Origin: Shigella phage SF1-1
Direction: 5' to 3' (one strand)
DNA: 64,000 nucleotides
Sequence record: PQ571307
Part shown: positions 17,505 to 18,060 of the stretch, one piece after another
Position numbering within the stretch: the stretch's first letter is position 1
Layout: each line of letters starts with the position of its first letter
Position numbers and translations under genes: made by a program
Notes under the pieces: generated by a model
Seen by the model: the letters and a program-made list of their open reading frames with translations, nothing else
What the model was told of the DNA's origin: nothing
The model's database searches: none

Positions 17505-18060
17505 CCTGCGCGTCATTCTCTAAATGAGAATGATTATCATTTACCTTATTGAATAAGAATAAATCTCATTTATAAACTTAAATGCGAATCATTATCATTT
17601 GCATTTCCATATGAGAACTCTTCTCATTCTCACCTGCATAAATTTTTGTAAACTTTAAATTTTGCTTTTGTACTTTCATTTTTGTAAAAGCAAAAAAACT
17701 TTAAATACTGTGGGCGCGCAAAATTTTTAAAATTTTCCTTGACTTTTGAGTTTTGTTTTGTATCTGACATTTTAAGATAATTTTCCTAAACTTTAAATTT
17801 TGGTTTTCAACTTTCACTTTTGTAAATTCTTAAAAAGTTTAAATAATTTGAGGGATTTTTGAGATAATAGGTAGTGGGAATTTGAGATAACCTTTAATCT
17901 TATTGGTAAACCTTCAGGAACCCACTTAGATCGAATCCTAGTGATGCAAACTGAAAAAGATAAGGGTTTGTATAGGACAAAATAACAGGCTCTCTACGGT
18001 GCTGTAGGAGCCTTATTTCTGTGCTACAAAGTGACACCTTTGTTCTAAAAATGAAAAAAG
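17505..18060. repeat. AT-rich iteron / operator region
   Basis: About 45 bp direct repeat (AAACTTTAAATTTTG.TTT..ACTTTCA.TTTTGTAAA) at about 17650-17695 and 17780-17825; AAACTTTAAAT x4; palindromes CATTCTCTAAATGAGAATG (17511-17531) and ATGAGAACTCTTCTCAT (17611-17627); GAGAATGATTATCATTT motif. Confidence 0.55.

Follow-up and report, generated by a model that had tools for sequence, protein, structure and literature searches.

Non-coding repeat regions of the general kind described here are already known, as replication origins and as phage T5's injection stop signal (iss). Iteron origins (lambda ori, P1 oriR, plasmid oriV) carry at least three direct repeats of ~17-22 bp in helical phase beside AT-rich DNA, and at T4 oriF/oriG, the T7 primary origin and ColE1 a promoter fires a non-coding transcript into an AT-rich, easily unwound segment. 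In T5, the injection-stop region is annotated at 9140-10149 of NC_005859; within the left terminal repeat it is Repeat Region 3 (Heusterspreute 1987 and Wang 2005, as summarised by Davison, bioRxiv 10.1101/866236). Here we describe a locus of Shigella phage SF1-1 (PQ571307) that shares features with each of these systems, found in a 64,000-nucleotide stretch that we call the window. The source phage is a Phapecoctavirus, a phAPEC8-like myophage (Stephanstirmvirinae; E. coli phages) with a genome of ~150 kb, of which the window covers 64 kb; genome-wide uniqueness was judged in phAPEC8 (147.3 kb), where the site lies at 142.5-143.3 kb. The 800 bases around the site are 98-99% identical to Phapecoctavirus genomes (PNJ1809-36, phAPEC8, ESCO13 and others).

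As read from its sequence, the segment from 17267 to 18014, ~750 bases, is one conserved, single-copy, non-coding cis-acting locus. A previous sequence-only reading had marked out 17505-18060 as an AT-rich iteron region; the functional unit begins ~240 bp to the left of that interval and ends at the terminator at 17988-18014. Two predicted promoters face an AT-rich block with direct repeats, separated from it by an ordered array of palindromes. Because the site is unique, melt-prone, repeat-bearing and non-coding, because its promoters would fire into the block and because its repeats are lineage-specific, we rank a transcription-activated replication origin first among its candidate functions, with a probability of about 0.35.

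Parts of the locus and their conservation

The features that compose the locus, together with two outlying ones needed below, are as follows (PWM, position weight matrix; ORF, open reading frame).

9387..9725, no strand: direct terminal repeat of 330-339 bp, the physical genome ends, ~8 kb from the site
16992..17264, + strand: small ORF of 90 aa (PHROG 19316, E 6.5e-17), annotated as ESCO5 gp148 and alia alia_104
17267..17296, + strand: predicted promoter P1, sigma-70 type, TTGACA-18-TAAACT, 10/12 match
17303..17400, + strand: P1 leader, GC-rich and non-coding (ACAGAAGAG..CGCCACCCCACGGCGTAAAGGCGGGGC..GATCGCCGG), with invariant blocks in the alignment
17401..17420, + strand: CpxR-type box TTTGTAAAGAAATGTAAAGA, with GTAAA-N5-GTAAA (GTAAAGAAATGTAAA) at 17404-17418, invariant in all 17 relatives
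17433..17460, + strand: predicted promoter P2, TTGCTT-16-TATTCT, position and hexamers conserved in all 17 sequences
17465..17520, + strand: P2 leader (ACATGGCGAGGGG..GAGACAAACACCG..) with G clusters, conserved
17523..17541, no strand: predicted Fur box 1 AATGAGAATGATTATCATT, PWM 31.4 bits
17552..17570, no strand: predicted Fur box 2 AATAAGAATAAATCTCATT, weaker, PWM 24.6 bits
17581..17599, no strand: predicted Fur box 3 AATGCGAATCATTATCATT, PWM 27.7 bits
17610..17628, no strand: predicted Fur box 4 TATGAGAACTCTTCTCATT, weakest, PWM 18.4 bits
17641..17712, + strand: first copy of the 72-nt direct repeat, carrying AAACTTTAAAT boxes (17650-17660, 17696-17706)
17731..17759, + strand: truncated third (middle) unit AATTTTCCTTGACTTTTGAGTTTTGTTTT; the palindrome AAAATTTTTAAAATTTT and an island of GGGCGCGC come before it
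17779..17850, + strand: second copy of the 72-nt direct repeat, carrying boxes 17788-17798 and 17834-17844 (AAAGTTTAAAT)
17858..17867 and 17881..17890, + strand: two TTTGAGATAA boxes, the sole exact copies in the window and in phAPEC8
17988..18014, no strand: bidirectional intrinsic terminator, an annotated terminator in phAPEC8

The G clusters of the P2 leader precede the AT-rich block. From 17521 to 17900 the DNA is non-coding with 24-25% GC, which bears out its earlier description as AT-rich, and at a scale of 200-300 bp no duplex in the window is less stable than that of the site (z 3.6-3.8); in the phAPEC8 genome it is the second-least-stable segment. The second-least-stable stretch of the window itself lies at 14040-14370 (GC 0.20-0.28, z 3.4-3.9). 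Comparison across relatives revealed no conserved ORF within the AT-rich repeat region, and both a 46-aa ORF at 17630-17770 (- strand) and the ORF annotated in PsgM04F were discarded as genes since relatives carry stop codons.

The two 72-nt direct repeats, 138 bp apart, are identical at 59/72 positions (82%), compared to a mean of 37.5 matches (sd 1.7, maximum 45) in a shuffle control (n=300). The repeats are real and far above chance expectation. The AAACTTTAAAT box is exact at 17650, 17696 and 17788 and has one mismatch at 17834, giving spacings of 46/92/46 bp, with 46 bp separating the boxes inside each unit. This spacing is probably what the sequence-only reading took for a direct repeat of ~45 bp: it was right that there are two repeats, the unit being 72 nt. 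Its four sequence units likewise correspond to the four AAACTTTAAAT-type boxes, of which three are exact. Both in the window and in phAPEC8, exact AAACTTTAAAT (three copies) and TTTGAGATAA (two copies) are confined to the site. We rejected the repeats as sigma-70 promoters, since their matches reach just 8-9/12 and are not conserved in alia and KP2025, and the AAACTTTAAAT-type and TTTGAGATAA boxes as recurrent phage promoters, as the motifs are absent elsewhere in the window and in phAPEC8.

Conservation of the P1-P2 stretch was assessed on an alignment of 17 sequences from two subfamilies, Stephanstirmvirinae and Vequintavirinae. The P1 hexamers are kept in place, with spacers of 17-18 nt, in 15/17 aligned relatives, the spacer sequence varying; at P2, too, the spacing is kept as the spacer sequence drifts. 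The transcribed leaders retain 70-77% nucleotide identity across both subfamilies, out to phages of Klebsiella, Cronobacter, Salmonella and Erwinia. A common order (P1, leader, CpxR box with P2, Fur boxes, repeats) is found in alia, KP2025, PsgM04F, BIS47, EspYZU15 and slur16, where one to five Fur boxes are followed by two or three direct repeats of 60-90 nt. After the repeats, BIS47 and PsgM04F have two or three TTTGAGATAA boxes, and alia, KP2025 and slur16 no exact copy; the motif also follows the repeats in T5 (10120, 10140) and in five T5-like contigs.

Across the two subfamilies, the architecture is thus conserved while the sequence of the repeats changes by lineage and the other parts stay. 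In Stephanstirmvirinae the repeats are of the AAACTTTAAAT/AAAAACTTTAAATAATTT type, AAAAACTTTAAATAATTT being kept in alia, KP2025 and PsgM04F, and in Vequintavirinae the equivalent place holds three direct repeats of ~72 nt, AAAAATTTTTT..AAATACG..CGATCGAGAAC (loci L009 1790-2040, L010 1745-2010 and L011 1720-1930). GATC is enriched 2- to 3.5-fold in the Vequintavirinae repeats and clusters only there, and an extra promoter-like site precedes them and is directed into them (TTGACT-17-GATACT in BIS47). Repeats that vary by lineage among otherwise constant parts are expected of sites co-evolving with a phage-encoded binder; the pattern suggests that a phage-specific protein binds the repeats and that the remaining parts are served by shared factors, probably those of the host.

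The AT-rich block as a candidate origin

The promoters, CpxR box, Fur boxes, repeats, terminator, uniqueness and conservation can be read from the sequence, and from them we infer a role for the AT-rich block. In the proposed mechanism, P1 and P2 would transcribe the non-coding leader through four phased Fur boxes into the most easily melted 270 bp, where transcription could either unwind the AT-rich repeats or leave an R-loop or RNA primer in them. A phage protein specific to the repeats of each lineage might then help to assemble the replisome. Host Fur, between promoters and repeats, and CpxR, at P2, would gate firing, and transcription would stop at the bidirectional terminator, which would also close the convergent leftward operon.

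The locus resembles T4 oriF/oriG, the T7 origin and ColE1 in being a single-copy site whose predicted promoters, P1 and P2, face an AT-rich segment prone to unwinding, with a non-coding transcript. It differs from them in having neither sequence similarity to them nor a defined primer-processing signal, and in adding Fur boxes, long direct repeats and TTTGAGATAA boxes. Its likeness to iteron origins is confined to direct repeats that adjoin AT-rich DNA and change with the lineage. The classical iteron-type origin that had been proposed for the interval does not hold up, as the repeats are 72-nt units with boxes of 11-14 nt at 46/92/46 bp, instead of phased 17-22-bp repeats, no initiator gene is adjacent, and a search of the plasmid collection returned no origin-like similarity. 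The single match there was a 137.6-kb E. coli 'plasmid' record (CP057073.1) that resembles an rV5-like phage genome and probably is one, so that its type label is doubtful. DnaA boxes were also rejected as a feature of the site, which has one weak, unconserved match; a perfect DnaA box, TTATCCACA, occurs in EspYZU15 only, further downstream.

Several observations weigh against a transcription-activated origin. No initiator-like gene flanks the site, whose neighbours encode a NADAR protein, small proteins of unknown function, an endonuclease with a CapR domain and an AAA ATPase, with no Rep/O/DnaA-like family among them; the core replication genes are on the opposite strand at a distance of >7 kb; and the size and spacing of the boxes are not iteron-like. 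Another AT-rich intergenic stretch of phAPEC8, at 57.8-58.1 kb, is less stable still but has few repeats. The GC skew follows the direction of transcription and is uninformative on an origin, and the P1 and P2 leaders have no significant RNA fold (single-sequence z -1.4; RNAalifold -7.3 and -2.3 kcal/mol). Finally, the T5 region of equivalent composition is known as an injection-stop region and is not a mapped origin, the T5 origins having been mapped internally (Davison; PMC3632103). In its favour we also count the G clusters of the leader, the GATC enrichment of the Vequintavirinae repeats with the promoter-like site directed into them, and that no origin has been reported for this phage group (rV5 paper, PMC3606486). 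The origin, the transcriptional and the DNA-entry readings discussed below are not all mutually exclusive.

Host-factor sites and neighbouring genes

The palindromes that had been noted in the interval form an ordered array of four 19-bp Fur-box-like inverted repeats exactly 29 bp apart (17523, 17552, 17581 and 17610). The best match to the Fur sequence GATAATGATAATCATTATC is 16/19, at 17526-17544, and overlapping matches offset by 6 bp occur at 17520, 17526 and 17532 and at 17578 and 17584. A BLAST search of the array against 5,426 E. coli genomes was uninformative for motifs so short, and a PWM cross-test was used in its place: the matrix was built from 41 distinct phage copies alone, independently of the Fur consensus, and 74 kb of E. 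coli K-12 were scanned. Its top matches were the ryhB promoter (28.4 bits), fepB-entC (16.7 and 13.8) and fepD-entS (14.7), followed by the region upstream of feoA (12.1 bits) and fepA-fes (9.4 bits), all of which are documented Fur sites (PMC2189734). We conclude that the palindromes are near-consensus predicted Fur operators. They share with E. coli Fur operators the 9-1-9 arrangement of a 19-bp inverted repeat (ryhB AATAATAATCATTCTCATT compared to phage box 1 AATGAGAATGATTATCATT), and differ in lying off promoters, in their fixed 29-bp spacing and in favouring G over T at position 6 (73% G). In the searchable literature, phage Fur boxes have been reported only upstream of cargo genes of temperate phages. 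phAPEC8 has just six such sites, four in the array and two inside the terminal repeat.

Upstream of the array, the phage box GTAAAGAAATGTAAA is an exact match to GTAAA(N)4-8GTAAA, which PMC9603713 cites as the CpxR consensus of E. coli. It lies 14 nt upstream of the P2 -35 hexamer, with 12 nt between the end of the 20-mer motif and the -35; the distance from box to -35, 12-13 nt here, is 3 nt in other genera, shorter by one turn of the helix. A perfect tandem box upstream of a weak sigma-70 core promoter is the arrangement of CpxR-activated promoters, and the weak core of P2 is consistent with dependence on an activator. What sets the phage site apart from such promoters is that it is carried by a virulent phage and would drive a predicted non-coding transcript. 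The 20-mer TTTGTAAAGAWWTGTAAAGA, which holds a perfect CpxR box, was also found in 51 IMG/VR stretches (including L012, L014, L016, L018, L025, L047 and L057), many of which look unrelated to the window, with the 20-mer 2-3 nt upstream of a sigma-70 -35. One of them (L057) has at least six tandem TGTAAAGA units, and there are two copies of TTTGTAAAGAWWTGTAAAGA in T5-like genomes (T5 5077-5096, Repeat Region 1). The 20-mer has the look of an upstream promoter element that recurs among enterobacterial phages.

These host-factor sites raise the possibility, which we hold to be unlikely yet worth keeping in view, that the locus is purely transcriptional and senses the host: P1 and P2 would make a non-coding RNA responsive to envelope stress (CpxR) and iron (Fur), either a short small RNA ending at the first Fur-box hairpin or a ~700-nt transcript ending at the shared terminator. 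Multicopy Fur boxes might titrate Fur from host iron-uptake genes, and the AT-rich repeats, having no part in replication or entry, would be curved DNA, H-NS-type DNA or DNA of the promoter-upstream kind. The promoters, CpxR box and Fur boxes that it builds on are the best-supported parts of the locus, CpxR-box promoters are widespread in enterobacterial phages, the leader is more conserved than usual non-coding DNA, and the phage encodes an iron-dependent class Ia ribonucleotide reductase. A U-rich tract follows the hairpin at 17512-17534 (-11.3 kcal/mol, z -3.6), which could attenuate transcription and end an RNA of ~75 nt; the hairpin is, however, not conserved as a terminator in relatives. 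Moreover, the Fur boxes overlap no promoter and lie at about +55 to +160 from the P2 start, unlike in classical Fur repression, and the two in the terminal repeat have no assigned promoter. The leaders lack a significant fold, and Rfam gave no match at E<=1 in 15-20 kb and none at the gathering score in the whole window. Nor does a purely transcriptional role account for the presence of unique and highly significant 72-nt repeats together with TTTGAGATAA boxes, the order of which is kept from family to family.

Within the P1 leader, 17320-17346 may form an H-type pseudoknot in which CGCC/GGCG combines with CCCC/GGGG, with CCAA/TTGG instead in a divergent sequence (L058), and a hairpin at 17350-17365 changes from ACCAG/CUGGU to AUAGC/GCUAU in the same sequence and is longer in Seunavirus. 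The compensatory changes come from this one divergent sequence alone and are too few to claim the leaders as an RNA family.

The terminator at 17988-18014 folds on both strands (- strand, -16.8 kcal/mol, z -4.4, then GUUAUUUUG; + strand, -15.3 kcal/mol, then UAUUUCU) and is predicted to end the leftward operon and probably the P1/P2 transcripts. That operon runs from a divergent switch at ~24.5 kb and its last gene is the NADAR-domain gene at 18069-18611; the next set of small early genes begins at ~16.88 kb and also runs leftward. The genes that flank the site in phAPEC8, ESCO5 and alia lie on the window - strand, with the exception of one small + strand ORF (16992-17264), whose slot is not conserved between genera, other proteins occupying it in KP2025 and BIS47. 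The convergence of gene blocks described earlier is therefore local, between this ORF with the two + strand promoters and the - strand operon ending at 18069; the large blocks on both sides are on the - strand. phAPEC8 gp009, a 99-aa ORF on the - strand (window 17201-17500), runs over both promoters and the CpxR box, is unannotated in ESCO5 and alia, and is probably spurious.

The gene that ends at the terminator (18069-18611, - strand) carries a NADAR domain (PF08719, Pfam 1.8e-35) and looks mis-annotated as 'GTP cyclohydrolase II' in ESCO5 and AV125/AV126. The 'endonuclease' at 19159-20166 (- strand) has a CapR homology domain (PF21817, 1.5e-23) with a weak treble-clef zinc-finger match, and adjoins an AAA ATPase (20236-21375). 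To the left of the site, the 20-mers GTAGGGCGGCAATGGTGCCG listed as 'PHIRE promoters' in phAPEC8 correspond to hairpins GGGCGGCAATGGTGCCGCTC (window 16824-16882, - strand) directly downstream of ordinary sigma-70 early promoters, a position that points to 5'-end stem-loops of early transcripts rather than promoters. Several near-identical E. coli-phage records are labelled as Campylobacter, Acinetobacter or Pseudomonas phages (e.g. MG065650, OR584014), host labels that are doubtful.

Likeness to T5, genome ends and significance

The T5 injection-stop region is made up, in order, of paired DnaA boxes, five palindromes (9552-9721), nine GTGCAAATCCGACA repeats and two TTGAGATAA boxes at 10120 and 10140. 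The five palindromes (L063 = NC_005859) score as Fur boxes. A 31-nt segment around Fur box 3 (window 17577-17607) is 97% identical to T5 9652-9682 (E 8e-10), and several T5-like contigs share both the 29-bp spacing of the palindromes and a TTGAGATA box downstream. The T5 palindromes are also located just left of the annotated major single-strand interruption (9748). Both regions are untranslated, rich in repeats, situated between convergent units 8-10 kb from a genome end, and composed of 19-bp palindromes spaced at 29 bp, followed by direct repeats that are specific to the lineage and, after these, by two TTGAGATAA boxes. The phage site differs in lying outside a long terminal repeat, without paired DnaA boxes or the A1/A2 genes, and in having promoters and a CpxR box directly upstream, the T5 CpxR-type box being in Repeat Region 1, at 5080.

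This likeness would fit a boundary for DNA entry, in which the Fur array, repeats and TTGAGATAA boxes form a nucleoprotein block that delimits or pauses transfer after the ~8-kb terminal segment with its small early genes is inside the cell; P1 and P2, the sole promoters facing the rest of the genome, could then help to pull the DNA in. We consider such a role doubtful. Beyond the shared order of elements and the 31-nt identity, it is favoured by the small genes between site and end, transcribed endward in both phages, and by the T5 shear point, estimated by Davison (bioRxiv 10.1101/866236) at 9618 in AY587007 coordinates: with an estimated offset of ~80 nt between records it falls at ~9698 in NC_005859, inside the T5 Fur array. 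However, tblastn with 18 queries (T5 A1, A2, dmp and other left-terminal-repeat proteins) gave no match at E<0.1 in the 64-kb window, and the site has no TTATCCACA pair of the paired DnaA type (IRD'-spacer-IRC'), the single TTTTGCACA at 17252-17260 not being conserved in relatives. The terminal repeat is 0.33 kb, not 10 kb, with the site outside it and 8 kb away; two-step entry has never been reported for these myoviruses; and the shared motifs could merely be sites for common host factors. A more specific proposal, which we regard as a long shot, is that the phased Fur array, and not the DnaA boxes, is the conserved core of an entry stop common to T5-like siphoviruses and rV5/phAPEC8-like myoviruses, with cytoplasmic host Fur binding the emerging palindromes and arresting transfer after the first 8-10 kb.

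The physical ends of the genome are found in the direct terminal repeat. Korf et al. 2019 (PMC6563267) described a 328-bp terminal repeat in the close relative Schickermooser, whose record has identical first and last 329 nt mapping to window 9386-9720, and at least 10 records from different isolates (WPEC1/2/4/6, Mt1B1_P17, BI-EHEC, KKP 3954, Ro121lw, 3A1_SA_NWU and Schickermooser) begin or end exactly in the 330-339 bp element, most of them at both ends; short terminal repeats are usual for this supergroup. Its two strong Fur boxes (9443-9461 and 9622-9640) are the only others in the genome. At a scale of 100 bp, duplex stability in the window is also lowest within the element (9611-9710), and beside it ~1 kb without ORFs (9726-10727) is strongly asymmetric between strands, showing a CA-rich - strand with GC skew +0.14 and AT skew -0.24, TTTGNTGGTTNGTTGTT-type repeats, a 38-nt palindrome (10024-10061) and a Fur-like site (10460-10478).

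A packaging recognition site (pac/cos) or genome terminus at 17505-18060, the other function that had been suggested, can in practice be discarded even though such sites typically have repeats and palindromes, Fur-box palindromes are present in the true terminal repeat too, and the T5 TTGAGATAA boxes lie within that phage's terminal repeat, ~80 bp from its right boundary: the ends are in 9387-9725, no matching relative has a record with the interval duplicated or at its end, and the terminase large subunit is far away (phAPEC8 62.65-64.73 kb). Of what was to count against the sequence-only reading, half is borne out: the termini do map elsewhere, but relatives do carry the repeats.

For Stephanstirmvirinae and Vequintavirinae, phages of broad host range that are widely used in therapy collections, neither an origin nor an entry signal nor a dependence on host factors is known, and we propose the locus as the best single candidate cis-acting site in their genomes. 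Our literature search found no description of the palindromes as phased Fur boxes, of the CpxR-box promoter or of a module common to T5-like siphoviruses and two myovirus subfamilies. Near-consensus predicted Fur operators and a perfect CpxR box are two unexpected host inputs in a virulent phage. An entry stop built on the Fur array would, if true, supply a host factor for the T5 iss, now 50 years old, and mean that the genome also enters in stages in a second group of phages, unrelated to the first. The injection-stop region of T5 is made of the same palindromes, spacing and TTGAGATAA boxes, and recognising these palindromes as Fur boxes makes the question of the T5 stop accessible to simple experiments.

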